DNA of 64,000 nucleotides, from positions 2,046,001 through 2,110,000 of the forward strand of contig JAGIQG010000016.1 of NCBI GenBank assembly GCA_024679065.1, read 5' to 3'. Source of the stretch: Sphyrna mokarran. Lineage: Eukaryota. The notes below the pieces were generated by a model, which saw only the letters and a program-made list of their open reading frames with translations, did not search any database and was not told the origin of the DNA. The position numbers and the translations under genes were made by a program. The number at the start of each line of letters is the position of its first letter. The first letter of the stretch is position 1. Shown piece by piece: positions 2,964 through 56,321 of the stretch.

Positions 2964-3257
2964 ATGGCACAGTCAATACAAGGATCCGCTCTGATGAAAC
3001 AGATGGGTATCTCACTCTACAGGTGAGATTGTGTCCGTGGTGTTTGGGTGATGGGATCAGGGTCAGAACAGAAGTATAGGTCAGAGTGTTGCCATGCTGA
3101 GTTACAGTGTTTGAGACTGATCCAGGTATGTCAGTGGGAGTGTACCAGGTTAAGACAGGTGCTGTTCCATTGCACGTTGTATTGAAGGTGCAGCTTATGT
3201 TCACACGCTTTTCTGCAATAGTTTCAGCAGGGAATATTGTGGGTTTATCTGTGAAAT
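2964..3257 (-). CDS. Siglec-like receptor, Ig C2-set exon (domain 2)
   Basis: 294 bp, AG/GT bounded, phase 1-1; DFTDKPTI...ISCTFNTTCNGTAPVLTW...LTCRV, with the extra Cys typical of Siglec domain 2. Confidence 0.9.
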
Positions 3258-4343: not shown

Positions 4344-4709
4344 CAGAAACGTGAAGCCGGGTTACTGGGTAATAGTTATGGGTGGGACCGTTGTCAAATT
4401 CGATTCTGAAAAAATAAGGTCCTGCATCTTCCCGTGTGACATTGTTTATAATCAGGGAACAGTCACCATCTTTCAGGTCTCCTGACAGCCGGGTCCGATG
4501 ACGGAACTGTGGCAACTCGTGATTGTGATCCTTGGAGTGAAAGGCTAGAGGAGCCCAGGGAATCTGTTTCTCAGCATAAAACCAGACTCCACCTCGAGGC
4601 TGGTTTGCCAAATGTGATGGATAACTGTAATGACATGGAATCTGTACACACGAACCTTCCTGCGCTGTCACCTTTCGTGGAGTGTCGCCTTTCCACTCTT
4701 GTGACAGTC
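4344..4709 (-). CDS. Siglec-like receptor (CD33-related/CD22/MAG family), V-set sialic-acid-binding exon
   Basis: 366 bp, AG/GT bounded, phase 1-1; SCVQIPC, GDCSLII and DAGPYFFRIE give the Siglec Cys pattern plus the essential F-strand Arg (codon 4405-4407). Confidence 0.92.
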
Positions 4710-10948: not shown

Positions 10949-11467
10949 TAATTTTGTCAAAAATAAACTCGGTCTCACACGAGATGCTGACACCAAAACC
11001 CTCTTGTTCCGTGTCCTTTTCAAACATCTGTGACTTCAGCAGAAACCTGTAAGTGGCTGAGTCAGAACTAAATAATTGAATCAGGAATTGGATAAAGCTG
11101 AGGCCATTCAGGCCATCATGTCTGTGCTAGCACTTTGACAAATTTATCCAAATATTATAAATTACCCCCAACACCGTTCTTTTCCCCAAAACCAGGCAAA
11201 CATTTTCCCATCACACATTTATTCAATTTCTCCTATTGAAAATTCCAATTACCTTCCTCCGTTGTACCTGGTGTTGTCGGGGTCAACTCTGCTGTCAGAC
11301 GGGGAGTCAGTGTATATCAGTGAGCACAGGGTGTTTGGGACTGGGTCTGGGACTGTGAGTCTGTACACTGGGTCACTGCTGAATTGGCTCCCAATCAGAG
11401 CTCAGTAAGAGTCATCTTTTACAAAGATTATTAACCACAAATCTGTCTGAGCTGACAATGATATTAC

Positions 11468-11519
11468 CTTGGAGAAGTGACAGAAGGAAGTAAAATTTCG
11501 CCATCATTGTCCACTCCAT
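11468..11519 (-). CDS. Siglec-like receptor, signal-peptide exon (coding part; full exon 11468-11544)
   Basis: Encodes MEWTMMAKFYFLLSLLQG and ends phase 1 at GTAAT, joining in frame to LSQEWK of the V exon; pyrimidine-rich acceptor at 11545. Confidence 0.85.
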
Positions 11520-11917
11520 TTCACCAGCTTCTCACTCTCAAACTCTGAAAGAGAAAAGAGTTAATAAGACCTCATCTCTTGCCCGACAGCTCTCGAGAGA
11601 CTGCTTTCAGTCACTGTATTTACAGACTAATTGGATTCTGTGTGGAATGATAATACTCTTCAGAGACACAAGGCTTTCGGAAAGAGAAACAGTGAAGGAC
11701 TTGCATTTCCATAGCGCCTTTCACCACCTCAGTATGCCCCAATGCTTGAATTCGAAAGTTGTTCTTTATGACAGACTGGAGCCTCACAGCCAGATCTCAA
11801 TTATCAGTAGAAATATTTCAAAGGCATCAGTCATTAGAATCTGTATTTATAACATCACACCATCAACAAAGGACAGTGTTGATTGTGGAAGTGAATTCCA
11901 ATCATTCCGTTACTTAC

Positions 11918-12060
11918 CCAGGACCTATCCGTCTGCTCGCCTGGGGAGTAACTGCTGACCAACTCTGTTTGGGCTGAATGTCCTCTTCCTGTACTGTTCC
12001 CTTTGTGTGTTTAATTAGAAAGGGTTGATGTGTGACTCTGAATCCAAATGAGGGTGGTAA
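11918..12060 (-). promoter_or_regulatory. Putative Siglec non-coding first exon/promoter
   Basis: Strong donor TGG|GTAAGT at 11918/11917, about 370 bp upstream of the signal exon acceptor; conserved in a paralogous copy at 20.4 kb. Confidence 0.6.
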
Positions 12061-12244
12061 CAATATGAGACAACAGTTGATATTTTGAGTTGCTGACAAA
12101 CTGTTAACTCTTTGTATCCTGTCCCTGTGATCATACTTCTGCTCAGAGGGACACTTACTGACAAGGATTTTCTGGAGTGGTTCCAAGAATTTTGCACCCT
12201 CACTCCTGTCAAGCAGAAGGATTTGGATTTAAACATAATAAGCC

Positions 12245-12670
12245 TTACTACCGGAAGGACATGGAGACTCTGGAGAGAGTGCAGAGGAGGTTTACCAGGA
12301 TGCTGCCTGGTATGGAAGGTCTGAATTACAAGGAGAGGTTAGGCAAGTTGGGACTGTTTTCCTTAGAAAGACGTAGACTTAGAGGAGATCTAATAGAGGT
12401 GTACAAGATTATGAGGGGTATAGATAGAGTAAACAGGGTTAAGCTTTTTCCTAGGATGGACTCGAATAGCACGAGGGGTCACGGGCTTAGGGTGAGGGGG
12501 GTAAGGTATAATTTGGATGCTAGAGGGAGTTTTTTCACACAGAGGGTGGTGGGGGTATGGAATGCGCTGCCAAGTAAAGTGGTGGAGGCAGGTAATCTGG
12601 AGTTATTTAAGAAATACTTAGATGGGCACATGAACAGAATGGGAATGGAGGGGTATAGAAAACTGATTTA
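12245..12670 (+). mobile_element. CR1 LINE 3' fragment
   Basis: ORF 12177-12671: LERVQRRFTRMLPG...RRRLRGDLIEVYKI...FFTQRVV. Confidence 0.9.
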
Positions 12671-12889
12671 AAATAGGGATCATGAGCCTTGGGAGTCCCT
12701 GGGAAGTGTGTAAATAGATGATGATATTGATGTACTTGTTTTTATCCTACAGGTGCTTTGGTCCACCTTGTTGTCTAACAAGGGGCATACATGCGATGGG
12801 TCATGAGAGGGCTGCTCTTGGATTTTTTTCGAGAGTATCCTAGTGCTTCACGTTGTTAGTGTACACTTGACCAGGACCATTTGATGGGC

Positions 12890-13205
12890 AACACGACAGC
12901 TCAGTGACTATCGCTGTGCTGTGCAGATACATGGATTTGGGCCTGTGTCTGTGGGAGTTTGCGCATTTTCCCCATGCTTGCGTGGGTTTTTTCCGAGCGC
13001 TCAGGTTTCCTCTCACATCCCAAAGATGTGCTCTTAGGCTAATTGGCAAAACAAATTCTCCCCAAATTGTCTCAAATTTGGTTTTTAATCCATACATCTA
13101 TAAACATAGACAGGGATTATGGGTAGAGATGGGAACATCGGTGTGGCAGCGCGGGCTTGTTGGGCCGAAGGGCCTGTTTCCCGTGCTGTTTTGTTCTTTG
13201 TTCTA
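12890..13205 (+). mobile_element. HE1-like V-SINE (decayed)
   Basis: V-domain-like GTGGGAGTTTGCGCATTTTCCCCATG...GGTTTCC and a LINE-like 3' end. Confidence 0.65.
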
Positions 13206-13319
13206 TAACTCCAGAGATTTAAGCTCCATTAGATAGTTCAATGCACCTCATTCATTACAGAAGGAACATGGCACTGTTGAAACATCAGTACTGAGTGCCA
13301 AAAGGTGAGATGGTTAGTA

Positions 13320-14320
13320 ATGAGGGAGTGCCGCACTGTCAGAGGGTCACTGCTGAGGGAGTGCCACAGTCAGAGGGTCAGTACTGAGGGAGTGCTGCAC
13401 TGTCAGAGGGTCAGGACTGAGGGAGCGCCATACTGTCAGAGAATCAGTACTGAGGAAGTGCCGCACTGTCAGAGGGTCAGTATTGAGGAAGTGCTGCATT
13501 GTCAGAGGGTCAATACTGAGGGAGTGCCACACTGTAAGAGGGTCAGTACTGAGGGAGAGCTGCACTGTCAAAGGATCAGTACTGAGGAGTGCCGCACTGT
13601 CATTGGGTCAGTATTGAGGGAGTGTCAGACTGTCAGAGGATAGTACTGAGGGAATGCTGCACTGTCAGAGGGTCAGTGCTGAGGGAATGCCGCACTGTCA
13701 GAGGGTCAGTGCTGAGGGAATGCCGCACTGTCAGAGGGTCAGTGCTGAGGGAGTGCCACACTGTCAGAGGGTCAGTGCTGAGGGAATGCTGCACTGTCAG
13801 AGGATCAGTGCTGAGGGAATGCTGCACTGTCAGAGGGTCAGTACTAAGGGAGTGCTGCACTGTCAGAGGGTCAGTACTGAGGGAGTGCTGCATTGTCAGA
13901 GGGTCCATACTGAGGGAGTGATGGACTGTAAGAAGGTCAGTAATGAGCGAATGCTGCAGTGTCACAGGATCAGTGCCAAGACAGTGCTGCACGGTGAGAG
14001 GGTCAGTGCTGAGGGAGTGTCGCACTGTCAGAGGGTCAATACTGAGGGAGTGCCGCACTGTCAGAGGGTAGTACTGAGGAAATGCCACACTGTCAGTGGA
14101 TCAGTGTTGAGGAATGCTGCAGTGTCAGAGGGTCAGTACTGAGGAGTGCCGCACTGTCAGAGGGTCAGTGCTGAGGGAGCGCCGCACTGTCAGAGGGTCA
14201 GTGCTGAGGGAGTGCCGCACTGTCAGAGAGTCAATGCTGAGGGAGTGCCGCACTGTCAGAGGGTCAGTGCTGAGGGAGTATCAGAAGGTCAATACTCTGA
14301 ATGCCGCAGTGTCAGAGAGT
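13320..14320 (+). repeat. Degenerate array of the 33-bp minisatellite
   Basis: Same unit as 12-1170, more diverged. Confidence 0.93.
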
Positions 14321-14423
14321 CTGTTATGATGATGTTATCCACTAGATGCCAGTGTATCAGCAACAATATGTCCAAGTAGAATATCTCCTCCTGTATCTGT
14401 GGCAAGGCTGTGATATTACAGCA

Positions 14424-15275
14424 CAGTAAGAATCTGGCAACACCAATTTTAAGTCCAATCAATTTATTTGATAGTAAATCTGCGAGCTTTTGACTTTTCG
14501 TCTTTGTCAGGCAAATGCAATGTTCTGCTCTGTAATAGCACACATCAGCAAAGACAGTCACAGATTGCTGATTAGAATGCAAATCCTTACATCTAACCTG
14601 CTATTCAAGTATTAAAAGTGGCTAACAATGTGAGTGAAGCATTGGTTAGAGAAATGAGTATTTTCTCCAGACAGCACAGTAAGGGAGGTTTTTTGCTAAC
14701 CCAGGTAAGTCATGGGGGTTACAGATAGCGTGACATGAAGCCAAGATCCCTGTTAAGACCGTCCTCATGTGTGCGGAACTTGGCTATCAGTCTCTGCTCA
14801 GCGACTCTGCGCTGTCGTGTGTCACGAAGGCCCCCTTGAAGAACATTTACCCGCAGGTCGGAGGCTGAATGCCGGTGACTGCTGAAGTGTTCGCCCACAG
14901 GAAGGGAACTGTTTTGCCTGGTGATTGTTGAGCGATGTTCATTCATCCGCTGTGTTAGTGTCTGCATGGTCTCTCAGTTACTGTGCTGTCTGGAGAAAAT
15001 ACACATTTCTCTAACCAATGCTTCACTTACATTGTTAGCCACTTTAACACTTGAATACCAGGTTAGATGTAAGGATTCGCATTCTAATCAGCAATCTGTG
15101 ACTGTCTGTGCTGATATGTGTGTTATTGCAGACCAGAACACTGCATTTGCCTGACGAAGACAAAAGTCGAAAGTTCGCAGATTTACTATCAAATAAATCG
15201 GTTGGATTTAAAATTGGTGTTGCCAGACTCTTATTGAGTTTACCCCAGTCCAACACTGACATCTCTACATCATGA
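14424..15275 (-). mobile_element. Penelope-like element with ~258-bp inverted pseudo-LTR arms
   Basis: Arms 14424-14680 and 14978-15237 are reverse complements; spacer encodes the GIY-YIG C-terminus (MQTLTQRMNEHRS...AEQRLIAKF); hammerhead core at 15151-15172. Confidence 0.88.
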
Positions 15276-16475
15276 CTACTATCGTTACAGTACCACCACA
15301 GTCAGGAGGGTGTAACTACAATGTGACACGTTTTCATGGGAAATTTCTATTGTAACAGTGGACACAGGAATTCATATTAATGGGGAAAATGTGACAACAA
15401 AAAGGAACAAATCTGAGCCAGAAATTTGCTTCAAAATAAGAAGTTTAATTTCTAAATATCTACAGAACAGCCTGAGCAATTTAATCACTTGTATTAATAA
15501 ATATAATATTGTTCATAACCCAAATGCTTCTTACAATCTAACTCAGCACGGAACAACTTATTAATCTTCACCTGGATCCAGGACAATGAAAGATGCACAC
15601 TGGATCATAAAGGACAAAGGGATCACTGGCGGAGAGGCCAATGCTGCTTAACACAAGGGAAAGAATCACTGATTAAGGAAGGAAGATTGCAGTAAATATT
15701 TAACAAAATATCAAGTTAAACCTTCTCACTAATTTTCTCATACACAAGAAGACTAAGATTCCAGCCACATAAACACTGAATGTGATCCCAGCTATGAGTG
15801 ATCCTCCATTTACTGGAGTTTCTCTTTGTAAAAACAGACATTAATTATTGCACTACACTTTTAGAAAGATGCGCCAATGTATCTCGAGAAGCGATACATT
15901 CGCTCAATGTTTAAATACTCATTTTAGGGACCTGTCAACTTTTATTGTCTATCCCTAGTTTCCCCTAAGAAGGAGGGGGAGGATCTTACTCCTGAACCGC
16001 TGCATGGACACAAACTGGGAAGCTAGTTCAGAGGGCAGCATGAGAGTTAACGTGTTGGTGTCAGGAAACCTTCCACACTTGGCAAAGATTTCAGAATCGA
16101 AGACTGTCGGAACGGGAGGAGGCCATTCAGCCCCCTCGAACCTGGTCGCCTTTCAATGAGATCATGGCTGATCTATGACTTGGCACCTATTCCTTTTTCC
16201 AGAATACCTTTGGATAACAAGAATCTATCAATCTCAGATTTGAAATTGAACAATGGGTCTAAGCACAGATTGCTTATAGAAAGTAATGCCAAATTTCCCT
16301 CAGGGTTCTGAGTGTCAGACTGATTCCTAATTTCATTTCTGAAATTTCTGCCTCTCATCTTTAGACACTGTCCTCTATTCCTAGACTCTCCAACTCATGG
16401 AAATAGTTTCACTCTATCCATCTCTATCTGTTCTTATTAATATCTTGATATAAGCAACTTGTCAACCAGTCAACT

Positions 16476-17420
16476 TGATTTGATTTGATTTATTGTTACA
16501 TGTATTAACATACAGTGAAAAGTATTGTTTTTTGCATGTTAGACAAAGCATACCATTCATAGAGAAAGAAACGAGAGAGTGTAGAATGTAGTGTTACAGT
16601 CATAGCTGGGGTATAGAGAAAGATCTGCTTAATGTGGGTCCATTTAAAAGTCTGATGGCAGCAGGGAAGAAGCTGTTCTTGAGTCGGTCAGTGCGTGACT
16701 TCAGACTTTTGTATCTTTTTCAGGAAGGAAGAAGGTGGAAGAGAGAATGTCCGCGGTGCTGGGGGGGTCCTTAATTATACTGGCTGCTTTGCTGAGGCAG
16801 CGGGAAGTGTAGACAGAGTCAATGGATGGGAGGTGGTTTGTGTGATGGATTGGGCTACATTTACAACCTTTTATACTTTCTTCTGGTCTTGGGCAGAGCA
16901 GGAGCCCAGACCAAGCTGTGATACAACCAGAAAGAATGCTTTCTATGGGGCATCTGTAAAAGTTGGTGAGAGTCGTAGCTGACGTGCCAAATTTCCTTAG
17001 TCTTCTGAGAAAGTAGAGGCATTGGAGAGCTTTGTCAACTATAGTGTCCAGGACAAGTTGTTGGTGATCTGGACACCTAAAAACATGAAGCTCTCGACGC
17101 TTGTTACTTCGTCTCCATTGATATAGATAGGGGTGTGTTCTCCTTTACGCTTCCTACAGCTGATAACAATCTCCTTTATTTTCTTGACATTGTCAGCAAG
17201 ATTATTGTTGCCTTACCAGTTCACCAGATCCTCTATCTCTTTCCTGTACCCTAGCTTGTCATTGTTTGAGATCCGACCCACTACGGTGGTGTTGTCAGCA
17301 AACTTGAAAATCAAATTGGAGGGGAATTTGGCCACACAGTCATATATGTATAAGGAGTATAACAGGAGCTGAGAACACAGCTTTGTGGGGCACCAGTGTT
17401 GAGGATGATCGCAGAGGAAG
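16476..17420 (-). mobile_element. Rex1/Babar-type LINE 3' fragment
   Basis: LLYSLYIYDC...IFKFADNTTVVGRI RT motif; (ATCAA)n tail. Confidence 0.8.
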
Positions 17421-17683
17421 CTTGTGTGTGTGTGTGTGTGTGCGTGCATGTGTCATGGTGTGCTTCACCTTTTTAAGTATCTTTATACCTTTATCTGTGT
17501 GAGTTTTTGTATCAATAGGAAATGATCCTTTTGTATTTAAACACAAGAAATTTACAATCAGCACACAAACAGACATTTAATTTGTACCTTAATCTTTATA
17601 AATGACAAAACAAATCCTTCTAACATCAACCAAGAAGTGAGAAAGGCCAAGGTCACAGACATTTTTTGACAATCCATTAACAG

Positions 17684-18140
17684 AGGAGGCCATTCAGCCC
17701 CTCGAGCCTGTTACACAGGAACAGGAGGCGGTCCCATTCAGCCTCTCGAGCCTGTTACACAGGAACAGGAGGAGGCCCCATTCAGCCCCTCGAGCCTGTT
17801 ACACAGGAACAGGAAGAGGCCATTCAGCCCCTCGAGCCTGTTACACAGGAACAGGAGGAGGTCCCATTCAGCCCCTCGAGCCTGTTACACAGGAACAGGA
17901 GGAGGTCCCATTCAGCCCCTCGAGCCTGTTACACAGGAACAGGAGGAGGCCATTCAGCCCCTCGAGTCTGTTACACAGGAACAGGAGTAGGCCCCATTCA
18001 GCCCCTCGAGCCTGTTACACAGGAACAGGAGTAGGCCCCATTCAGCCCCTCGAGTCTGTTACACAGGAACAGGAGTAGGCCCCATTCAGCCCCTCGAGCC
18101 TGTTACACAGGAACAGGAGGAGGCCCCATTCAGCCATTCA
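17684..18140. repeat. 42-44-bp tandem repeat derived from a CR1 3' terminus
   Basis: About 10 units of CATTCAGCCCCTCGAGCCTGTTACACAGGAACAGGAGGAGGCC, contiguous with a minus-strand CR1. Confidence 0.9.
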
Positions 18141-20240
18141 GCGAGGAAGAGTTCCACAGATTCACCACCCTGTGGCTCAAGAGATTCCTTCTCATCTCTG
18201 TTTTAAAGGAGCATCCCTTTAGCCTGAGATTGCACCCTCAAGTTCTAGTCTCTCCACTAGTGGAAATATTCTCTTCATGGCCATTCTATCCAGGCCTCTC
18301 AGTGCTCTGTAAGTTTCAATTAGATCCCACTTCATTCTTCTAAACTCCACTGAGTACAAACCCAGAGTCTTCAACTGCTCCTCATATGACAAACCCTTGA
18401 TTCCAGGATTACTCTTGTGAATCTCCTTTAGATGGTTTCCAAGGCTGATACATCCTTCCTTAGGATGAATGTTACAGTTTGCAGAGGGACATAGATAAGT
18501 TCCGAGCTGGGCCGAGAAGTGGCAAATGGAGCTTAATGTGGAAAAGTGTGAGGTGATTCACTTTGGTAAGAGTAATATGTGTGCAGAATATAGGGCTAAT
18601 GGTAGGACTCTTAGTAGTGTAGATGAGCAGAGAGATCTCGGTGTATTGGTGCATAGATTTCTGAAAGTTGGTACTCAAGTTGATAAGGTTGTTAAGAAGC
18701 TGTATAGTGTGTTAGCATTTATTGATAAAGGGATTGAATTTCAGAGCTGAGATGTCACGTTGCAACTGTACAAAACTCTGGTGCGGCCGCACTTGGAGTA
18801 TTGTGTACAGTTTTAGTTGCCACATTATAAGAAAGATGTGGAGGCATTGGAAAGGGTGCAGAGGAGGTTTACCAGGATGTTGCCTGGTATGATGGGTAGG
18901 TCTTATGAGGAAATGCTAAGGGACTTGAAGTTATTTTCATTAGAGAGAAGAAGGCTAAGAGGTGACCTAATTGAGACATATAAGATGATCAGAGCGTTAG
19001 ATAGGGTAGGTAGTGAGAGCCTTTTTCCTCAGGTGGAGATGGATAACACAAGGGGACATAGCTTTAAATTAAGGGGTGGTACTTATAGGACAGATGCTAG
19101 AGGTGGAATCTTTACTCAGAGGGTAGTAAGGGCGTGGAATGCCTTGCCTGCAGTAGTTGTGGACTCGTCAAGTTTAAGGGCATTCAAATGGTCAGTGGAC
19201 AGACATATGGATAACATTGGAATAGTTTAGGTTAGAGGGTCATAAATTGGTTCCATTGGTCGGCACAACATCGAGGGCCGAAGGGCCTGTACTGCGCTGT
19301 AATGTTCTATGTTCTTAGATATGGGGCCCAAAACGGCTCCAAATATGGTCTGACCAAAGGCTTATACAGCCTCAGCAGTACATCTTGTATTCTAGCTCTG
19401 TTGCTGACATTGAATTTGCCTTCCTAACTGCTAACTGAACTGTGAGCCCTTATTCCAGATCCTCTCCCCGAGCCAGAGAAAACAACATCCTTCATCCTGT
19501 CTGACCCAATCTCTCCCTGTATGATAATTCCCCCATCCCAGGGATCAGTCTGGTGAGTCTTTGCTGCGCTCCCTCTGTGGTATGTATATCCTTTCTCAGA
19601 TAAGGAGACCAAAACTGCCCACAATACTCCAGGTGTGGTCTCACCAAGACCCGGGACAGCTACAATGAGACATCCTTGTTTCTGTACTCAAATCCTCTCA
19701 CAATGAAGGCCAACATGTCATTTGCATTCTGAACTGCTTGCTGTACCTGCACACTTGCTATCAGTGACTTGTGTACAAAGACACACAAAGTTCTTTTGTA
19801 CATCAATATTTCCCAATCGATCAACATTTAAACAATACTCTGCTTTTCTGTTTCTCCATCCGAAGTGGAGAAATTCGCATTTATCCACCATATTCTGTGC
19901 CTGCCACTTATTTACTCAATCACCTTGAAACCTCTCAACATCTTCTTCATCACTTACACTCCACCAAGTTTTGAGCTGTCAGCAAACTTGGAAATATTAC
20001 ATTTGGTTCCCTTATCCAAACCATCAAATTATACTGACATATAATGAATAGCTGGGTCCCAAACACTGATCCCTGCGGGATACCCACTCATCACTGCCTG
20101 CCACTTTAGAAAAAGACCCATTTATTCCTACTCCCTGTCCTGTCTGCAATTAATTCACAATCCCTACCAATATATTACCCCCAATTCTATGCACTTTATG
20201 TTTACACACTAACCTTTTCAGAGGCACTTTACCAAAAAAA
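18140..20240 (-). mobile_element. Cluster of minus-strand CR1 fragments, interrupted by a nested plus-strand CR1
   Basis: CR1 RT-derived sequence on both sides of 18464-19313. Confidence 0.75.
18464..19313 (+). mobile_element. 5'-truncated CR1 nested insertion with CTTAG target-site duplication
   Basis: ORFs 18526-18750 and 18817-19230 are CR1 RT C-terminus; CTTAG at 18459-18463 and 19314-19318. Confidence 0.85.
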
Positions 20241-20427
20241 AGTTAGAATCCAAATAAAAGGACAAAAAGCATACACAAGTTGCTGAAATGTTTGAAAGAA
20301 CTGGTTTTGTTTGAAAATGTTGGTGTTGAAGTTCAGGTAAATGAACGATTCTGGAGTTAACCCTTAGCCTGGACAGCTCAAGTGTTGATAGTTTAACAAC
20401 ACAGAATAGGAACCATTTTTACAAGCA

Positions 20428-20737
20428 ATGACCACATCCTCATGCAGAGTCACAGTGACAAATCAACCTCTTCTAAGTAAACATGAAAAGGAACTTCGAC
20501 AGAAAGAGGATGTTCAGCCCAAGCAGAGCAAGTCAGTAGTTACTCCCCAGGCAAGCAGTCAGACAGATCCCAGGTAAGTAACGGAACAACTGGAATTCAT
20601 TTCCACAATCAATATTATCCGTTGTTGATGTTGTGACTTTATAAAGACAAATTCTAATGATTGATGCCTTTGAAAGATTTCTACTGATTATTGAGATCTG
20701 GCTGAGAGGCTCAAGTATGTTGTATAGAACATCTTTC
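20428..20737 (+). promoter_or_regulatory. Inverted paralogue of the Siglec first exon/promoter; putative 5' exon of the GPCR
   Basis: Aligns by eye with the reverse complement of 11754-12060; donor CAG|GTAAGT at 20573/20574. Confidence 0.65.
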
Positions 20738-22149
20738 TGGTGTTGTAAAAATCAGTGTTTTAACCCTTATACAGTGGACAGATAATTTACAAGGGGGAAT
20801 AGGTTCAAGGTGAGAGGGGAAAGTTTAAGTAGATGTGCAGGGACGTTTTTCACACAGTGGTGGATAGTTGGAACGCACTGGCAGAGGAGGTGCTGGAAGC
20901 AGGCACATGAAGATACAATGAAAATTTACATAGAAACAGAAGATAGGAGAAGAAGGAGGCCATTCAGTCTTTCAAGCCTGTTTATAGGTTGTCTGGATAA
21001 AGTTTATTTATTAGTCACAAGTAAGGCTTACATTAACACTTCAATGAAGTTAATATGAAATTCCCCTGATCGCCACTCTCCGGCATCTGTTCGGGTCAAT
21101 GCACCCTAGTCAGCACGTCTAGTCAGAGGAAACTGGAGCACCCAGAGGAAACCCATACAGACACGAGGAGAATGTGCATACTCCCGCACAGACAGTGACT
21201 CAAGCTGGAAACTGAACCCAGGTCTCTGGCGCTGTGAGGCAGCAGTGCTTACTGCTGTGCCACTGTGCCATCCACAGTACATGAATAGGGACGAGAGAGA
21301 TATGGACTAGGTAAGGGCCGAAGGTTTTTTAGTTTAGTTAGGGCATCATGATTGGCATAGGCTGAGTGGGCTGAAGGACCTGTTCCTGTGCTGTAGTGTT
21401 TTTTGTTCTTTGTCTGCTGAAGCAGGGTCAGCGCTGAGTTTGGGGACAAGTCAGGCTACAATCCTGCATCAGAATCAACAATATGAGGTTGGATCAGAAA
21501 CAATGCCTTCGACAATGAGAATCCAAAGAGATTCTGTAGGCCAGGGTCATCTAATAGCATCTTCCAAACCCACCAGCTCTACCATCTAGAAGGACAAGGG
21601 CAACAGATACCTGGAAATACCCCCATCTGGAGGTTCCCCTCCGAGTCACTCACCATCTCCATTTGGAAATATATCAGCCATTCCTTCACTATCACTGGGG
21701 TCAAAATCCTGGAACTCTTTCCCTAACAGCAAGGTGGGTGTACCTACAGCATACGGGGAACTGCAGTCGGTTCAAGATGGCAGTTCACCACCACCTTCTC
21801 AAGGGGACAATTAGGGATGGGGAATAAATCCTGAATCCGGCCAACAAGACATCAGGAGTTTGATTGAAATGTATATCATTTTGCAGATCCACGTCCTCTT
21901 TCCCAGTGTAAGTGAATTATAATCAGATTCTGCTCAATGTCACTGCAAATTTCAGTTGGTTTATGGTCTGTCTCCAATGATGCTGAAAGATTTATTGCTT
22001 ACTGAGAAATAACTTTTACTCAGAAAAGCAACAACAGTGCAAAAATGCAACTAATCTAAAGAAGGTAAAACAATTAGGAGTCAAAGCTTCTGAGTCTTCC
22101 TGCTCCCATCACTCCTCTGTGGAGACTTCCTCTTACAGTGGATCATTCC

Positions 22150-22545
22150 CTCAGTACTGACCCTGTGACAGTACAGCACTCCCTCAGTACTGACCCTGTG
22201 ACAGTACGGCACTCCGTCAGCACTCACCCTCTGACAGTGTGGCACTCCCTCAGCACTGACCCTCTGACAGTGTGGCACTCCCTCAGCACTGACCCTCTGA
22301 CAGTGCGGCACTCCCTCAGCACTGACCCTCTGACAGTGCGGCACTCCCTCAGCACTGACCCTCTGACAGTGCGGCACTCCCTCAGCACTGACCCTCTGAC
22401 AGTGCGGCACTCCCTCAGCACTGACCCTCTGACAGTGCGGCACTCCCTCAGCACTGACCCTCTGACAGTGCGGCACTCACTCAGCACTGACCCTCTGACA
22501 GGTGCAGCACTCCCTCAGCACTGACCCTCTGACAGGTGCAGCACT
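22150..22545 (-). repeat. 33-bp minisatellite, reverse orientation
   Basis: About 12 units of CAGCACTGACCCTCTGACAGTGCGGCACTCCCT. Confidence 0.95.
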
Positions 22546-22691
22546 TCCTCAGTTCCTGCACATTCCAAGTGGCCTTTTGCTGTGCTGTAGGGACAATCTC
22601 TCAAATGATGGAACAGTTTGTGAATGTGAGTTTTCTTCCTGTCACAGCTCTCAGCACTGGATTTCTGTCCTTTTGTTTTTTTCAGATCAGC

Positions 22692-23680
22692 ATGGACAGG
22701 CGTGAGACTGATGCTGCTTTCAATCTTTCGTTCAAGGCGGGAGTCACAGCTAACCTCACCAGGGGCTCTGTCAATCAGACCTTGTTAGGGCTGAGCCTGT
22801 CCTTGCACCTTCTGGTTTTCCTGCTGGGGCTAAGCGGTAACTGCCTTGTGCTGTGGATCGCCGGCTTCAAGATGAAGAAGACAGTGGCCAGAGTCTTCGC
22901 TTGCAACCTGGCAGCAGCTGATCTCTCTTTCGTCCTCTTCCTGCCCTTCTCCTTCAGTTACCTAGTCATGGGCTTCCACTGGCCTTTTGGCAGAGCTCTG
23001 TGCAAGTTCATTGTCTCCATCGAGTATCTGAATCTCTTTGACAGCATCTTCCTGCTGACCACTATCAGTGTCCAGCGCTGTGCCTCTGTCTGTGCGCCCA
23101 TCTGGGCCCGCAATCACCTCAGCCCCCGGATAGCTATTCGCACCTGCCTCTTCCTCTGGGGCCTAGCCCTACTCTCCATTATCCCCTACCTGCTCTTCCT
23201 TGATACCGTGCCCGCGGGAGGGAACCGCACCCTCTGCCAATTCTGCTATCGCCTGCCGGATACCCCCCAGGCGAGCAGGGTAAGGTCCTGTCCCACCAGC
23301 GGGAGGCTGCGCTCCTCCTCAGCTGCTTCTTCCTGGCTTTTCTCCTCCCCTTTATCGCAATTGCGGGCTGCCACACTGCCATCCTTGTCCACCTGCGGAG
23401 GAGGCAGGGAGTGGTGGATCGCCCCAGCAGGCCTCTTCAGGTCACACTGACCATCGTGGCTGCCTTCTTCTTCTGCTGGATGCCCTATCATGTCTTCAGA
23501 CTCCTCAAGGTGGCCATGGGCCCCACCCCCGCCGTCCATCTGGGTGTCATTCTCAGCCACAACCTAGTCCTCTTCAGCTGCTGTCTGAACCCTATCATCT
23601 ATGCCTTCCTGGGACGCAGGTTCCAGGAGACATTCAAACAGTCTCTGCAATCCATCTTGGAACAGATTGGCTTGGACTAG
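22692..23680 (+). pseudogene. Chemoattractant class-A GPCR (FPR/CMKLR1-like) with one frameshift near 23263-23268
   Basis: Acceptor TTTCAG at 22685 then ATG; GN-LV-W-AGFKM, NLAAAD, HWPFG-LCK, QRC (DRC position), CWMPYH, NPIIY; TM5-7 are in a different frame; about 329 aa if one C is restored; AATAAA at 24267. Confidence 0.85.
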
Positions 23681-24819: not shown

Positions 24820-25290
24820 TGTGAGAGAATATTGTAGTATAAGCAGTAAAATGTGAAATGACTCGATGTGATTATAACTAAAAGAAAAGAATGAAGTAAA
24901 TATGCTCTTTTTTATTATTTGACTTAAGTCAGCTAAACTAAGCCGACAATTATTGTAGAAACAGAATGATTTGGTCAAGGACAAAGATTGTAACTACGAT
25001 GGTTTCATAGAGTAAGAGATGCATCAATTAGTGACCAATCACAGAAAAGGTAGATAAAGGACGGGCTCAACAACAATGGTGGCTAAGAAAGCCAACCTTG
25101 AGGATGAGATAAGGGTATGCAGCTGTAGTGAGCATAAAAAGACTGTAAGCGCATCGTTCGTTGGAATGTTCCGGACATCCCGGCTTTGTTCTTTTGTGCT
25201 GGAGAATAAAGTCTACTGCTTGGAGGATTACAACTCAGACTCTCTGTTTCAATCGGGTTAAATAAGTTGTCGTCTTGGGGAACCACGACA
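24820..25290 (+). repeat. 5' LTR (471 bp)
   Basis: TGT...ACA ends; CCAAT at 25035, TATA-like CATAAAAA at 25133, AATAAA at 25205. Confidence 0.97.
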
Positions 25291-25294
25291 AAAT

Positions 25295-25312
25295 TGGCGC
25301 TGCGAGCAGGGT
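25295..25312 (+). promoter_or_regulatory. Primer-binding site, tRNA-Ser
   Basis: TGGCGCTGCGAGCAGGGT, complementary to the 3' end of vertebrate tRNA-Ser(UGA/CGA) with about one mismatch (from recall). Confidence 0.8.
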
Positions 25313-25407
25313 TGGTGCGAGATCACCCAGAAAAAGGCATCTGGAAGGAGTGGCGGAGACGGTGGTCCGACCGGGGCTGGACATCCCAAAGCCGGCATTC
25401 TGACAGC

Positions 25408-25416
25408 AAGGTAAGC
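25408..25416 (+). promoter_or_regulatory. Putative major splice donor of the ERV leader
   Basis: AAG|GTAAGC about 100 nt downstream of the PBS. Confidence 0.55.
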
Positions 25417-26552
25417 AGATTTATATTGCATGTAAATCCTTGTTGTCGGAAAAGGGATCTCGAGGCCCGGCGCACCCGGCTCTCTGCTGGTCCTGGATCT
25501 CCCCAACCCAAAAGACATCCTGCATAGGTAAAACTAAATTGTGTAAAACATTTTGAGAGACTGAGTCTGATCTGAAGGGTAGAGTTTTGCATGCAAAGCG
25601 CGCTGCGAATACTGTATTGTCTGTGAATGGGTAAAAAGCGAGACGCAAAAAGAACCGAACGCTAATTGATGCAACTAGGTTCAGTCGAGCGGTTTGGAGC
25701 GGGATTCCAGGTTACGACTTGCCCAAGGAGAGTAAGTGTAGGAAGGCCTGCCAGTCCGAACCTACCCAGGACCTCGGATAAAGGACGTCAACCGAGAGAA
25801 GGAGAGATCTGTGAGAGATTGATCTCCTACCTAATACAGTTGTACAGTTGTCAGGGTTACTAAAGCACAAATCAGTAGAGAAGGAGACAATTGGTTGGAC
25901 GTGTGACAAAGGGGCTGTAAGGAACCAGCCTGTGATGAATGGTTCAGAACAGCGGTGCAAGGATTGATGGTGAATGTGGCACTCAGGACGCACTCAGAAT
26001 AGTGACAAACAGCTTAGAATAACTGCAGTAACAGATTCTTCTGAGCAGTAGTGTTAGCACACATTACCTAAAAAAAGAGAACTAATGAAAGCAGTTGGAG
26101 GGGAAGTTAGGGAGTGGCATAAGGGTGAAAAAGACGCTCTGTTGAGAAAGATTACACATATAATTAATTTGGATGAAGTAAGAAACGAGTGGCCGTAAGT
26201 GAACTGGGAAGGAATAATAAGCAGAAATTGGATAAGTGAAACAATAGCAGAAATGTTAATAGAATTAATAAAGGAACCCAGATCGCGTAGGGCTTTAATA
26301 CACATAGACCAACAAGTAAAGGCATATTATTCTTTAGCAAGTGAAAGAAGAATATTGCCAGGGAGAGGGAAAACAGGGAAGTGGATATCGGAACCCCGGT
26401 TAGAAGTACAGGTGATAGTAAGAGAAGCGCAGTGGGAGAGTGAACAGGGGATTGGTCAAGAAAACACAGTGTATTGTGTAATAATAACTATAATACCAAA
26501 TTCAGACAAATTAAACAACAGAATTCATAACAATAGTTCAAGAGTACAGACA

Positions 26553-28648
26553 ATGATAAGCAAGGCTAAAACACCAGTAGAAATACTAGGGGATAAGTTT
26601 CCAGCCCTTAGAGGAGATATAGCATACATCTCCAAAAAAAATGGACTAAAAGAACAAACAAATCAAATACACGATGGCCAGAAGGGGGCACATGGTGTGT
26701 GGAGAGATGCGAGGAGCAGAAAGGATTTTTGAAGAATTATAAAATAAAAGATAAATCTAAAAAAAGACAAGAAAAGCGAGAAAAAGAACTGGAGATACTG
26801 ACATTGTTTGAAAAAGAAGGGAAAGAAAGGAGAAGGGTATGGGAGGGAGGTAGGATGCAAATGCCGGTGCAAGCTCAGGAAAAGGAGGGATTGAAAGACC
26901 CAAATGCAGCTCCACCTCCATATCCGGAGGAACAGAGATCCACTGGGTTATATCCAATCATAACAGGTACAATGAATTTTGAAGGAGAGTATGAGGTAAA
27001 ACAAATAACAAAAGAAGAATGGGTAGCACAAGATACAGAAAGGAGACAAAACATTGAGGAAGAAAGTAAAAAAGTAGAAGAGGATTTGGACAAAGTCATC
27101 CAGATGAGACAACGGTTGGAAGAGGAAGTGAAGATGGTAGATGTCCTAGAGTGGGCAAAGAAAGTAATGGAAAGGAAGGAAGATGAGGAGCAGGCAAGTG
27201 AAGGCGGATGTGATAAAAGGGAAAATAGAAGGAAACAGGAAAGCGAGAGAAGAGACAGAAATGTAGGCGTAAAGGACAACTGGAAGCAAAAAGGGGACTG
27301 GGACTGGAAACTTCCAGAAAAAGGGAGAAAGGAGGAAATAGAAAGAGAGACAGAGGGTAGTAGTGAAGAAGAAGGGGATTTATTGGCAGTGTTAGCGTCA
27401 CAGAGAAGGTCACTACGGGTAAGAAGACCACCAATAAAATACTCAAATGAAGAACAAAGAGAGGAAAATATATTCCCTGTGGTTCTGAAGGGTGGCAGAC
27501 TACAATATATCCCTTGGTCAGGTCAGGACTTGCCGAATTTGATTAGTGAATTACCCAATATTTTGGACAGAGCCGGAAGGTGGATTGGACAGCTGGAGGC
27601 TGGAATGGTGGGAAAAAGGATGGCGCTGGGTGATATCAAAGCCCTCCTGACAAAAGTGCTGGGAATGAATCAAATGGCTGAGGTGATGAGACTTGCAGGC
27701 ATCCCAACCGCAGCATATGACCCAGATGTGGATGGAACGCTAATGGACCCATACCGCCACGATATTTGGCAGGCATTACGGGACATGTACCCCAATCGGA
27801 TGGATATAAAAACCCTGAGAGGGGAGCCATTGGGTGAGGAAGAGAATGCGGCTGTATATGTGGAAAATCAATTGGGAAGGTGGAGAAGGAACACGGAGAG
27901 GGATACTCTAACAGACCCACTAACCAACTCCCTGTTCCGAGCTGCAATTCTAGAAGGCTTGCCAGTTTCAGCTAAGTCTAGATTGGAGGAAGTGGTAGGC
28001 CTGGAGTCAAAAAGCTATAGAGAATTCTTAGACCGTGTCATCCACGCGGTAGAAAGACACCACAAGGAGGAAAAGAATGCAGACAAGCAGCTGAAAGACG
28101 TACAGCGCAAACTTCTCCAAGCTCAGCTGGAGGAAATTAAAAACAAAGAAAAGCAGAAATTAAAAGAGGATTCCACACCCAAGAAAATGGCACCGATGGT
28201 GGCTGACCTAACGATCGGAGAGATACCCACACTACCACAAGGGAGAAGTGGAGGTGGAAGTCAGCCCATCATAACCTATAACATTTCTGGTTTCCCACTG
28301 TCCATGAATCCAGGAGGTTACAATCCAAATTACCAAAATAATTGGAAACCCCAGAACCAAAATAACTGGAATGAGAAAGGACAGGGGCAGGGAAGTGGTA
28401 GACTACCCTATCAGAACCAGAAGGGACAAAGTCAGGGAAATAATCAAGGTCAGAAACAGGGACCGCCACCTGGTCCTCCAGGTGTATGTTTCGGGTGTGG
28501 GGAAGCAGGACATATAAAAAGAAACTGTCCTCAGAACCTTCAGAGACAAGGAGGGAACCAGCAGTATGTAAACCAACAGATAATGCAAACACCGCTAAAC
28601 GACCCCCAGATGTCCCAAGGACCAGTGAATCATCAGGGTTTCCTATAG
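26553..28648 (+). CDS. gag: ERV Gag (frameshift in A8 run 26634-26641)
   Basis: MISKAKTPV... joins KWTKRT...WPEGGTW (matrix-like WPxxGT); PPPY late domain 26912-26923; single CCHC knuckle CFGCGEAGHIKRNC 28487-28528; ends in TAG. Confidence 0.9.
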
Positions 28649-31600
28649 GGAGGCCCAGAGAACCCCGAAATGGTAGGCCAATACATACAAATAACGGAAA
28701 CAGCAAACCAGGAACCCATAATTAGTGTTAGAGTAGGAGGGGTCGAGGTCCCCATGATGATTGATACCGGTGCTACTTGTACATGCATACAGGCAAAGTA
28801 TGCAGACCACCCACCATTGTCAGGTCAGTTTGTAAAAACTGTGGGGTTCTCGGGGAAAGCGACATTGACCCAAATAACGACGCCGATACCTGTCACCGTC
28901 AGAAACAAAACTACCCATGTACCCGTGTTAGTCTGTAGTAAAACGCCACTAAATTTGTTAAGAAGAGACGCAATCCTAGGTTTAGGATTGAAACTAGAAT
29001 GTACAAATCAGGGAATTAACTTAACAGGAATGTACCCACTTAGGATGCAAGGGGAAGAATGGGCTAATGTATATTGGTTAGGAGATATAGAAGAACAAGT
29101 TAAAGAACAAGTGTGGGAAACGTGGGGGAAGTTTGTAGAAGCACAAATTCCAAAAGCTGAATGGCCAAAGACAGAATTACATTGCACAATGATATTTGAT
29201 GAGAAACAAAAACCTGAAGTGCAGGAGAAATGGGAAAAAGAGGCAGGACAGGAACAGGAGGTAAAGTCAGGAAGTATTCTAATTGGACCAGAGGGAGCAG
29301 CCCTCACAATCATGAAAGATGCATGGGTTAGCAAATGGTTCTCCGTTCTTGGAGCAGAACCACACATTACATTAAAAGTAAATCCCGGATATAGACCAAA
29401 AGACCTGGGGCCAATGGTGCTTAGAGCAAGGGAACTAGAATTTGTTGAAACAGACAATGCGAATATTTGGATGTCCACTGACGGACAAATGATGAAAATA
29501 CTCTCAGACACTGAGATGGTTGGAAAACCCAAACAGGTGAGAATAGAGGTAAAGAATAAAGAACAGGAACAAGAGTGGAGGGAAAGACTGGAAAAAGATC
29601 TTAACTCTCTCTCGCAAGAACTGTGGTCGAAGCAGGACACTGATGTAGGTAGGGTCAAGATAGCCAACCCAGCAGAGATTAGGTTAAAACCAGGATGCCG
29701 AGGACCCTACAGGCCTCAGTATCCAGTTAACCCGGAAGCAATAAAAGGCATTAAAGAGACAATCAGAGGACTAGTAGAAGTAGGGGTATTAAAAGAAACC
29801 CACAGCAGATGTAACACACCATATTACCAGTCAAGAAAGCCGATGGAGAAAAATGGAGATTGGTACATGACTTAAGGGCAGTCAATGAGGTAGTAGAAGA
29901 CATGCCGGTAGAAGTACCGAACCCCTACACCTTGTTGACTAATATTCCACCTGAAAGCAGATGGTTTACTGTAGTAGATCTATGTTCAGCACTTTTTAGT
30001 GTGCCACTAGCTCAAGCAAGTCAGTACCTATTTGCATTTACATACGAAGGACAGCAATACACATACAATAGAATGCCCCAGGGATTTAAGCATTCACCAC
30101 ATATATTTAATCAGGTACTAAGGGCAGATCTGGAAGGAATACAATTAGAAGGAACATTGATACAATATGTTGATGATTTGCTGTTGTGTGCAGAAACAAA
30201 AGAACAATGCAGAGAGGATAGTCTAAAATTATTAAGGCGACTGGGTGAAGGAGGACACAAAGTGTCCAGGAAAAAACTGCAGTTGTGTCAAAGAAAGGTA
30301 GAATATCTTGGAAGGGAAATAACAACAGGACAAAAGAGGATAGCCTTTCAACAGATAGAGGCTGTATTGAAAGTCCTGAAGCCACAAACAGTAGGGCAGA
30401 TGATGACATTCTTGGGAATGACAGGATTTAGCTCAGAATGGATAGAGAGCTATGCAGAAAAGACGTGGGCACTAAGGAAAATCATGAAGGAAGCAGGATG
30501 TGAAGAACTAAAAACAAACCTAATATGGGATAGAGAAGCCCTGGAAACATTCGAAAACATAAAAAAAGGAAATGGCACAGGCACCAGCATTGACTCTTCC
30601 CATGTATAATAAACCCTTTGATCTCTTCGTGGGTAACAGGGAAGCAGGATTTGCAACAGCAGTGCTGATGCAGGAAAGTTGTAAAGGCAGGAAAAGGCAG
30701 GCCATAGCTTATTACAGCACCAAGCTAGACGATGTAGCTATGGGATACCCCCCGTGCTACCAAGGCCTGGCAGCAGCCTGGTGGGCATATGAAAAAGCAG
30801 CCGTGGTCACGATGGGATATCCAATAAACATACATGTATACCATAAGGTAGCTGAACTGATCGAACAGGGGAGATTTGTACTGACGCCTGCCAGAATCCA
30901 TCACTACCGGATGCTGACCACCTTTCCAGATATTACGATAGTGAGATGTAACAGGGTTAATCCAGCCGACTATATGCCATTACCTCATGAAGGAGAGGAG
31001 CATGAGTGTGTAAGAGAAGCAAAAACATTCATGAAACTAAGAAAAGACTTAAAAGCAGAAAAACTAGACACAGAAAGGAAAAGAGTACTATATGTTGATG
31101 GCTCGTGCTACAGGGATCATGTAGGAAACCATGCAGGTTATGCTATAATTGAACAGAAAGGGGAGACATTTGAAGTGTTAGAGGCAGAAAAGTGTGAGCA
31201 ACCCTGCTCAGCCCAACTAGCAGACCTCAAAGCATTAACTAGAGCATGCGAGTTGACAGAAGGGGAAATAGTGGAGGTATATACAGATTCAGCTTATGTG
31301 CATGGAGTGTGCTACCTATTTGGAGCAATATGGAGACAGAGGGGATTCATGAAAAGTGGAGGAGGACCAATACAGCACGAAAGTCAAATAAAAGCATTAA
31401 TATGAGCAATGATGGGTCCAAAAGAATTGGCCATAATCAAATGTCAGGTGCACAAAAAGGGAAAGGATAATGTTACCAAGGGAAATGCTAAAGCTGATAA
31501 AGTAGCCAAAGAAGTGTCAGGATGCATCATGACCACAATAGCCCCAGTCGAGGTGAGACCACACCCAGGACCAGGGATGGGGAGCATTGCTCCCCAACCC

Positions 31601-33014
31601 ACCCTAGAAGATGTGGTGCAGTTACAGGAGGAAGCCATGATAGCTGAAAAGACAATGTGGAAAGATAGAGGAGCAGTGCAGGGTCAACATGATAGAGTGT
31701 GGAGAAACGGGAAAGGGCTGATCGTAGCACCTACATCATTACTAACCTTACTAATCAGCGAAGCACACGGAGTCAATCACTGTGCAAGGGGGGAGGTGAC
31801 CAGAAAAATAAAGAAGGAAGGATTCTGGTCACCTTACCTGCAGAATTCAATTGATTATATGTTAAGTCAATGTGAGGTATGTGCCCAGAATAACATCAGG
31901 AAAGGTATAACTGCTCCTATAGGGCACATACCAATTCCTGAAGGGCCGTTTAAACACCTATGCATGGATTATGTAGACATGGGGAAATTGGTGAGAGGAA
32001 AGAGATATATGTTGGTGATAATTGACAAATTCAGCAAATGGATAGAAGCAACACCATCCAAAGACCAAGGGTCTGGAACGGTAATTAACTTCCTGTCAAA
32101 AGAGATCATTCCAAGATTTGGCATACCCACTCACTTGAGTTCAGACAATGGATCCGCATTTATCGGAAGGGTACTGAGAGAAACTCTCTCAGCACTACGA
32201 GTAAAGCAGAAGTTTGGTTGTGTGTACCATCCCCAGTCTCAAGGAATGGTAGAGAGGGCAAACGGGACCCTCAAGGCCAAAATAAGTAAAATTTGCAGTG
32301 AGACAGGGAAAAATTGGATTGATGCCCTGCCACTAGCACTAATGCAATGCAGAAGTCAAGAAAACAGAACCACGCATTTAAGTCCACATGAAATGATGAC
32401 AGGAAGAGTAATGCCGGTACCAAAAAATTAGGGGATCGGGAGGCCCTACACTAGAATGTTTAGATCAAAGCACAAAAGAATATATACAACAATTAACTGT
32501 TATACACAGAACTTTATTTGAACAGGAGAAGGCCAAGGAGGAGGAGAATCCGGTGGCAGAACACCAGATCAAACCTGGAGATCGCGTGTATATCAGAAAG
32601 TTCCGGAGGCGCTGGGACGAACCCGGGAGAGAAGGACCATTTGAAGTTATCAAAGTCTCTCCTACGGCTGTGCAAATAGAAGGCAGTACACTGTGGTATT
32701 TAAATCATTGTACCAAAACAGTATCAGAGATAGAGGTTGATGGGAGAGTTGTAAGTACCGAAAGCCCGGATAGGAGTAGTGATGAGGAGGCAGGAGAGCC
32801 AGGGGAGGGTCCTTCTAGCCAAACACAGGATCAGGATAGGAATGCAGAAGTTGAAGGTAGTAAGAACGATTTTATGTCTGAGTTGGTTGATGATCCAAAT
32901 GTCCAGCCTGATGCCCTTGGCCAAGGCTCAGGAGGTGATGGGGAAAGAGCAGAAACCTCTTTTCCCACCTGGGACTTGGGGACCATCTCCCTCCCAGACT
33001 TTCTTGACCCATAA
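28649..33014 (+). pseudogene. pol: ERV Pol: protease - 2H-like domain - RT - tether - RNase H - integrase (disrupted)
   Basis: DTG 28763; MPQG and YVDD 30166; RNase H YVDGS/YTDS; integrase HHCC, D-D-E and GPF; frameshifts near 29820, 30565 and 32425, TGA at 31403. Confidence 0.93.
29045..29560 (+). other. 2H phosphodiesterase (CNPase/LigT-like) domain within Pol
   Basis: ELHCTMIF (29180) and EPHITLKV (29363): two HxT motifs 61 aa apart, between protease and RT. Confidence 0.8.
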
Positions 33015-33566
33015 CAGGGAGAGACAGAATGCAGAAAACCCACAATTAAGGTTAAAAGAAAATAAGAAAGTATTGAGATTAAAAGTGCAAGAACCCTTAG
33101 GCAGAATACTAAGAGAACGAAATAACAAGATACTTGGAAGAGATATTAGCCCGCCAAGGCGGATGGGTCATAAGAGATCAATAGACGCAACCACAATCTG
33201 GGTTCGGTCATGAGATTTGGGACTGGCTAGACAGTACGCTAGGGAAAATGGGGAATATGGCTTGCTAGAGCAGGAATTATAGCAGTAGTTATACTACTCA
33301 TTGTGGGATTAATGACTTGCTGTTTTTTGCCTGTTCTGAGATCTCTCGTAACTAGACTGATGGTGCAACAAATGGTGGCACGAATGAGTTATGATCAACC
33401 TCTCGATACAGAAACAGAGGAGTGGGAAGATGTCGAGCTGCCCCCACTGAATGGACTCACAATAACTATGATCAAAAACGAGGTGCAGTGCCCTGCGAAA
33501 ATGACGCCACCAAGGAGTTGCCCTACCAAAGTGGTAACAACCTACCAGTGCCCTGTTAAGACCTGA
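32779..33566 (+). pseudogene. env: ERV env remnant with a large internal deletion
   Basis: Signal-peptide-like MQKLKVVRTILCLSWLMIQMSSLMPLAKA overlapping the pol end; joined near 33200 to IWDWL...GKWGIWLARAGIIAVVILLIVGLMTCCFLP (membrane anchor and tail). Confidence 0.75.
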
Positions 33567-33851
33567 GAACTTAGTCTGTACACAGTGATTGGTCTTTTTC
33601 CTTTCTCTAGTCAAAAGTGGAAAGGTTTTTGGCTGATGACTGTTAGTCATAGGTAATCTGGGGGAGCGACCTATAATCAGAACATTGATAGATAAGTTAT
33701 AATAAAGTTAGAATAGGGACATTGATCCCTGACCCAAATACCTGGCTCCTCCACATTTTCTACTAAAACTACAGGAGCACATATATATATATATAAATTG
33801 AGAATATAATCATGTAGGGTAGTATTTTTGGGTGAGACTCGAAGGAGTCTC

Positions 33852-33862
33852 AAAGGGGGGAA
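33852..33862 (+). promoter_or_regulatory. Polypurine tract
   Basis: AAAGGGGGGAA immediately before the 3' LTR. Confidence 0.9.
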
Positions 33863-34332: not shown

Positions 34333-34336
34333 AAAT

Positions 34337-56181: not shown

Positions 56182-56321
56182 CTGAAAGAGACCAAAATTC
56201 AGTCAGGAACGCTCAATTCTCATTCCATTCTTGCTGAACATCTCAATGTTAACTCACATCAGCAGTAAAACTAATGCATCAATAACAGAAGAGGACTTTT
56301 AAACTCAGTCTGGCACACACT

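Follow-up and report, generated by a model that had tools for sequence, protein, structure and literature searches.

The inverted cassette between a Siglec gene and a chemoattractant receptor gene

We analyzed 64,000 nucleotides (nt) of the genome of the shark Sphyrna mokarran (assembly GCA_024679065.1, contig JAGIQG010000016.1, positions 2,046,001 to 2,110,000), henceforth referred to as the window. The window carries part of a Siglec gene on the minus strand and, on the plus strand, the coding exon of a G protein-coupled receptor (GPCR) of the chemoattractant family. Each of these two genes is preceded by one of two inverted copies of a short exon with the first part of its intron, which we refer to as the cassette (copy A at the Siglec gene and copy B at the GPCR gene). 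The initial annotation had read the pair as a promoter and 5′-untranslated region (5′-UTR) module shared by these two genes. By sequence comparison, the cassette belongs to shark Siglecs, in which its exon appears to have a double role, and its use by the GPCR is weighed below.

The Siglec gene is CD33-related-like. It comprises a signal-peptide exon (11468..11544; leader, ATG and phase-1 donor) that matches the signal peptides of the family, a V-set exon (4344..4709; Pfam V-set) with the essential sialic-acid-binding Arg (YFFR), and a C2-set exon (2964..3257; Pfam C2-set_2, E 3.8e-10; splice sites read from the sequence). The best solved relative of the V-set exon is Siglec-5, with the Arg aligned, and 110 shark and ray homologues were found. 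Neither a further V exon nor a further C2 exon was found in the window. The tail lies beyond position 1, outside the window, and the inhibitory nature first attributed to this Siglec is therefore unreadable here; its relatives bear tyrosine motifs. The GPCR has a single coding exon (22686..23680) that begins after an acceptor at 22685, 6 nt before the ATG at 22692, and ends with a stop at 23678-23680.

Self-BLASTN of the window aligned 11754-12056 with 20737-20435 over 303 columns at 80.9% identity (E 2.8e-77), in agreement with the initial estimate of about 80%, and found no third copy of the cassette within the 64 kb. Local alignment lengthened the pair to about 360 nt (12112-11754 on the minus strand for copy A and 20380-20737 on the plus strand for copy B). 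Copy A (11918..12112) has an exon core at about 12005-11918 with a GTAAGT donor, an upstream AG at 12037-12036 and weaker homology up to 12112. The first 164 nt (11917-11754) of its 373-nt intron (11545..11917) make up the intron half of the cassette. Copy B (20380..20573) has an exon core at about 20487-20573 and a CAG/GTAAGT donor. Its intron half (20574..20737) is 84–88% identical to that of A, and the homology stops shortly before a fragment of a long interspersed nuclear element (LINE). The remainder of the putative 2,112-nt intron (20738..22685) consists of interspersed-repeat fragments and a 33-bp minisatellite (22129-22552). Both GTAAGT donors (11918/11917 in A, 20573/20574 in B) and the acceptors at 11545 and 22685 stand where they had first been placed. 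The five shared sequence blocks quoted at that time each occur exactly once per strand; the A and B occurrences of CAGAGTCACA are 6 nt out of register in the alignment.

The copy number of the cassette was assessed using DNA contigs of four runs (X1, X2, X9 and X14) covering 20200-20850 at 80% likeness. Run X1 may be the source of the assembly. Summed contig depth is no true copy number, and the values refer to the listed contigs and alleles (115 allele rows and most contig rows lie outside the listing). In X1, the unique flank upstream of B had a depth of 17.3, the intron half of this copy 130–178 and the LINE piece next to it 23,144. At position 20655, this run contains nine contigs, with a summed depth of 148.4, in addition to those of A and B, with records 2 and 5, which carry the alleles of A, as a positive control. 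This corresponds to about 11 copies of the cassette in this shark at ≥80% likeness, as opposed to a depth of about 1,300-fold for the neighboring LINE piece. The initial annotation had itself raised the case of a dispersed high-copy repeat; the X1 contigs fall well short of the hundreds to thousands of copies that define one. The peak depth in the other three runs was about 30–75x that of their single-copy flank. About 11 copies is of the order of the Siglec family size, as in Mustelus, which has 9 Siglec entries among the 110 matches. Eight of these 9 entries share the same sequence length as the Mustelus GPCR orthologue. GPCR and Siglec entries also share sequence length in both Scyliorhinus species and in Heterodontus, which is indirect evidence of Siglec-GPCR linkage in these sharks.

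Copy B is not confined to the assembly. Runs X2, X9 and X14 each contain one low-depth contig with the upstream flank specific to B, and B therefore predates the split of those runs. Because 18 of the 23 listed family alleles match the base of A and not that of B, B is a derived member of the family. At position 20600, the ETS-like intron motif of A is the common allele in other runs and copies, and the B of the window lost this family-wide motif. Between 20465 and 20537, the X2 and X9 contigs with the B flank have 86 letters compared to 73 in the window, where A and B are equal in length.

The cassette exon as Siglec tail exon and probable Siglec leader

We searched 159 Siglec entries against both cassette islands using tblastn, and, at E ≤ 0.002, copy A was matched by 43 of them. 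The matched part is the segment that comes after the transmembrane helix in 21 entries, which represent 10 shark genera (this position was observed directly for most of them), and residues 265-288 of Mustelus P0123 match copy B at E 3e-12. Because the matched segment follows the transmembrane helix, the cassette exon is homologous to the coding exon with which the cytoplasmic tail of shark Siglecs begins. This tail exon is coding in the Siglecs of both galean and squalean sharks. None of 23 ray and skate Siglec entries matched the cassette at E ≤ 0.002, a weak negative given that many of these entries are partial.

A second form of the exon precedes the signal exon. Carcharodon P0122 begins with ..SPGEHSDRSW-SLRVRS, which is the frame of copy A across 11918>11544, and six isoforms of one Carcharodon gene start within the exon and run on into the signal exon in that frame. 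In Cetorhinus P0289, P0292 and P0294, the cassette is spliced onto the signal exon as an internal exon with two acceptors, and Cetorhinus P0114 contains the tail exon, then a second copy of the cassette and then the next signal exon. All of these are predicted XP models from few genes. Because their counterpart of the 11918>11544 junction is crossed in each case, we consider it very probable that copy A serves as a Siglec 5′-UTR exon, either first or internal. The original proposal of a Siglec 5′ exon is thus upheld by homology to these predicted junctions, whereas its origin appears to lie in an internal exon with acceptors. Neither A nor B seems, from the sequence, to have kept the CAG acceptor used by the Cetorhinus models, whereas another AG further upstream is retained in both. 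Many shark Siglec models (P0071-P0124 and P0281-P0296) have several tandem V-set domains, and these models run from one gene into the next via the cassette exon. Just downstream of the signal exon in the window, an exon-like stretch with a GTAATT donor (11254-11400, minus strand) has no Siglec protein match.

For copies in the other frame, the best-fitting tail exon is that of the same species. The Heptranchias copy has 1 forced difference to its own tail exon versus 4–10 for those of other species, and the Cetorhinus copy has 1 versus 4–8. The Carcharodon copy is closer to Cetorhinus P0114 (1 difference) than to its own P0148 (4 differences). The comparison, made on 25-residue peptides in two species, suggests that copies in the Siglec cluster are homogenized within each lineage. 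As a counterpoint, the N-terminal copy of Heptranchias could be the tail exon of a neighboring gene that the gene prediction joined in error, in which case a single case of conversion would be left.

The first third of the exon resembles the antisense 3′ tail of a LINE in the window (27/33 positions, score 42 compared to ≤28 in 8 shuffles). An antisense LINE tail is a possible partial origin of the exon, and with 33 nt matched we treat it as a lead only.

Possible use of copy B by the receptor gene

The nearest relatives of the GPCR belong to the chemoattractant group of class A receptors (FPR, CMKLR, C3aR and C5aR). In a 34-row tree, four shark receptors form their own clade (100/100), and the names given to them in databases disagree. 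Because this clade sits on an open fork, neither the CMKLR1 nor the FPR label is established. Orthologues were found only in Mustelus, Scyliorhinus and Heterodontus. By its proteins the shark of the window is close to Mustelus (87% identity over GPCR residues 1-190).

In this assembly the GPCR frame is broken near 23256-23263, which the initial annotation had missed, while the gene is full-length in the Mustelus and Scyliorhinus models. Taking S. torazame as the outgroup, 28 residue changes fall on the lineage of the window and 11 on that of Mustelus (p 0.009); where Heterodontus also agrees, the counts are 18 and 4 (p 0.004). Of the 28 changes, 21 are C>T or G>A, and one places an Asp in helix 3. 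Run X1 contains 0.98 of the 138 words of the GPCR stretch, a fraction that is compatible both with a true frameshift and with an error of the assembly. The pattern fits relaxed selection, with an assembly error possible at the break itself, and the GPCR is probably a pseudogene in this lineage. The recipient of the putative first exon is thus not intact in this genome. If the GPCR is dead, co-regulation of two working receptors, as first proposed, cannot hold here; it could in Mustelus or Scyliorhinus. At 23259-23289, next to the frameshift, the GPCR resembles the 3′ half of exon A (27/32, score 40, shuffles ≤28). Because most codons there fit the orthologues, we consider this match to be probably due to chance, the alternative being a short conversion tract.

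The cassette lies 5′ of two unrelated genes in the transcript orientation of each, and copy B is on the GPCR strand, 2.1 kb before the coding exon. Predicted GPCR models of S. canicula and Heterodontus use the same acceptor, in phase 0, to enter this exon (-ISM). The GPCR exon thus starts with a conserved acceptor that needs an upstream donor, and a further exon is to be expected on the 5′ side. Among 663 GT sites on the plus strand between 12251 and 22685, ranked by a frequency table, the donor of B ties for first place with a site in a repeat. B is therefore the best-placed donor upstream of the acceptor, and it would act as a non-coding 5′-UTR exon of phase 0 with an in-frame stop upstream.

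The explanation that we favor, with confidence just short of even, is that the cassette is a small exon-plus-intron unit of the shark Siglec cluster, and that its inverted copy B became the spliced leader of the GPCR. One form of the cassette would be the coding exon right after the transmembrane exon of Siglecs, and the other, 0.4 kb before the signal exon, would be spliced on as a 5′-UTR exon (copy A). Repeated duplication or gene conversion would hold the copies alike within each lineage. The inverted copy B would have reached the edge of the cluster, 2.1 kb before the GPCR coding exon, before several shark species split, and would there most likely have become the spliced leader exon, because the conserved GPCR acceptor needs a donor upstream. 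Both the GPCR and copy B now seem to decay in this lineage.

Several observations weigh against the use of B by the GPCR. The two GPCR models with an upstream exon (P0181 and P0003) use sequence unrelated to the cassette. No receptor protein matched the cassette at E ≤ 0.002 in three scans of the first 130 residues of 71, 92 and 143 proteins, a null of limited reach because a non-coding exon need leave no trace in a protein. The X2 contig and B differ at 24/265 positions in the flank and at 18/108 in the cassette (p 0.046); B is no better conserved than its flank and shows no extra constraint. The perfect donor of B is partly lineage-specific, with the base A at 20572, where all X2 and X9 contigs covering the site have G. 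A stray copy near the GPCR needs no function when there are about 11 copies and an orphan Siglec exon between A and B. For the other runs, the contigs show B with its flank, linkage to the GPCR being presumed, and the nine extra copies are presumed to belong to Siglec genes. Splicing of B to the GPCR (20573>22686) in some shark is putative, and its chances are about even. Two readings of the predicted GPCR extensions were rejected. Derivation of the Heterodontus extension from the cassette failed (23/300 and 135/300 shuffles score as well), and an integrase-like nature of the S. canicula extension was unsupported by Pfam at E 0.1 and by pairwise comparison.

It is quite possible, if somewhat doubtful, that B is the inert remnant of a lost, oppositely oriented Siglec unit, as either a leader or a tail exon. 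B would then resemble one half of a head-to-head Siglec pair, the GPCR would use another first exon, as its predicted orthologues do, and the neighborhood would be a by-product of cluster turnover. Humans have such head-to-head pairs at a spacing of about 9 kb (PMC5701461). The stretch between A and B holds an orphan transmembrane exon of a Siglec (15733..15844, minus strand; found by tblastn of the 159 Siglec entries and from the sequence). It is frameshifted with a decayed donor and went unnoticed in the initial annotation; Siglec debris is thus present in this interval. No V or C2 exon is present upstream of it in the window; the remnant and its downstream intron text are built into Mustelus model P0075. 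The multiplicity of the cassette and a rate of drift in B at least as high as in its flank also suit a remnant, and B fits the Mustelus tail exon P0123 and copy A equally well (6/25 residues differ in each case). However, the plus strand near B holds no Siglec signal, V, C2, transmembrane or tail exon; in particular, none of the signal, V, C2 and tail exons has left a trace in 20738..22685. Downstream of B, neither a signal exon nor the part of intron A beyond the cassette could be detected as a remnant, the best score (1/300 shuffles) falling on the minisatellite. B has also persisted with its flank in three other runs, and the 10.4 kb upstream of the GPCR acceptor offer no better donor outside repeats.

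A narrower form of the favored explanation, which we consider unlikely, holds that A and B are both transcription starts, so that one promoter type would drive the Siglec as well as the GPCR, with co-expression of the two in myeloid cells. The homology reaches about 110 nt upstream of the exon core and beats all 300 shuffles (80-nt test), the loss of the Cetorhinus-type acceptor in A and B is as expected of first exons, and one Carcharodon model starts inside the exon. A shared promoter is at odds with the identity between A and B, which is lowest upstream and climbs in the direction of the transcript, from 65% (20380-427) through 70% and 80% (3′ half of the exon) to 84% and 88% in the intron. 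The RUNX-like ACCACA and ETS-like GGAAGT motifs cited for it do exist, but each is in one copy only: ACCACA is specific to B (A reads ACCACC) and GGAAGT to A (B reads GGAAAT). A TATA box is absent within 250 nt. The second upstream AG in both copies, the internal use of the cassette in the Cetorhinus models and the frameshifted GPCR likewise count against two starts. A promoter module of just two genes, as first described, is not supported, given some 11 copies, the coding of the Siglec juxtamembrane tail and motifs that are not shared.

Distinctly improbable in our view is the most extended scenario, in which an 87-nt exon arose partly from an antisense LINE tail in early sharks and took on three jobs, as Siglec juxtamembrane coding exon, as Siglec leader or first exon and as captured first exon of the GPCR. 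As direct repeats flanking the Siglec ectodomain-transmembrane cassette, its copies would give unequal crossover and conversion a foothold, through which the cluster would expand and be reshuffled, and the expression of the GPCR would be tied to that of the Siglecs.

The reverse direction, with the cassette first a GPCR leader exon and later copied into the Siglec cluster, seems very improbable. This receptor family has a long history, and B already existed when the four sampled runs split, but the exon is coding in galean and squalean Siglecs, B carries the derived base at 18 of the 23 listed sites, and orthologues of the GPCR were found in three genera only. A segment unrelated to Siglecs, either a dispersed transposon or a structured RNA, can practically be dismissed, despite the LINE-like first third and a depth of about 70x single copy in one other run, given how few copies run X1 contains relative to the LINE, the lack of Rfam matches (E ≤ 0.1) between 11000 and 24000 and a Siglec tail segment conserved in 10 genera.

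Overall, the Siglec exon cassette is real, occurs in few copies and plays two roles within its own family, with a third role at the GPCR plausible but unproven. If the GPCR junction is real, it would be an old, traceable case of a receptor gene borrowing a 5′ exon from an unrelated neighbor and a means by which both genes could be expressed together in myeloid cells. Should the junction be false, a tail exon reused as the leader of its own family would provide a testable model of recombination in shark Siglec arrays, and of the read-through chimeras that fill shark Siglec annotations. The surprise is limited, as this class of mechanism is known and the receptor here is probably dead.

Neighborhood and comparison with known systems

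Beyond the GPCR, the minus strand carries exons of the PP2A scaffold subunit A (39169-63830), giving the gene order Siglec, chemoattractant GPCR and PP2A scaffold subunit. A long terminal repeat (LTR) retroelement (24820-34336) lies within a 37-bp minisatellite, 1.1 kb after the GPCR, and its 475-bp terminal repeats are 99.6% identical, as in a recent insertion. Its zinc knuckle, protease, reverse transcriptase, RNase H and integrase are in separate frames. The 33-bp minisatellite family forms six arrays (2-1174, 13308-14279, 22129-22552, 37991-38229, 56321-56458 and 60062-60380), and a 44-bp array at 17679-18135 has a unit resembling a LINE tail.

The same order of Siglec, chemoattractant GPCR and PP2A scaffold subunit is found at human 19q13.41, in the mammalian SIGLEC-FPR-PPP2R1A block, where the FPRs have one coding exon behind a 5′-UTR intron. 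In contrast to that block, the shark receptor is not resolved with the FPRs in our tree. We know of no leader exon shared by Siglecs and FPRs in mammals. Open PMC and bioRxiv texts yielded no publication that combines all four terms of this comparison and, supplements aside, none on a shark Siglec leader exon or an exon shared by Siglecs and a GPCR. Exonization of antisense retroposon tails is a general mechanism, which the LINE-like first third of the exon recalls; here, in contrast, 33 nt are matched and such an origin is a lead.

The cassette copies can also be compared to SIGLEC11/SIGLEC16, a head-to-head pair homogenized by gene conversion (PMC5701461). The likeness extends to a Siglec cluster, inverted copies about 9 kb apart and conversion that would keep copies alike, whereas both human partners are Siglecs with about 3 kb, including V and C2 exons, in common (PMC5701461). 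The shark pair has 0.36 kb in common, and one partner is a GPCR. The whale shark genome paper, in which Siglecs come up once, describes the substitution rate of cartilaginous fishes as slow (PMC8455134), and 80% identity between A and B therefore need not mean a young event.

The closest parallel for the GPCR is found in the primate LRRC37 genes, whose promoters were copied from BPTF and DND1 by segmental duplication (PMC3371713). In both systems a 5′ segment of one gene was duplicated before an unrelated gene; promoter activity at LRRC37 was shown by rapid amplification of cDNA ends (RACE) and reporter assays (PMC3371713), whereas the shark case is known from its sequence. Unlike in LRRC37, the donor segment in sharks doubles as a coding exon within the Siglec family, the two genes are neighbors and the event would be old.

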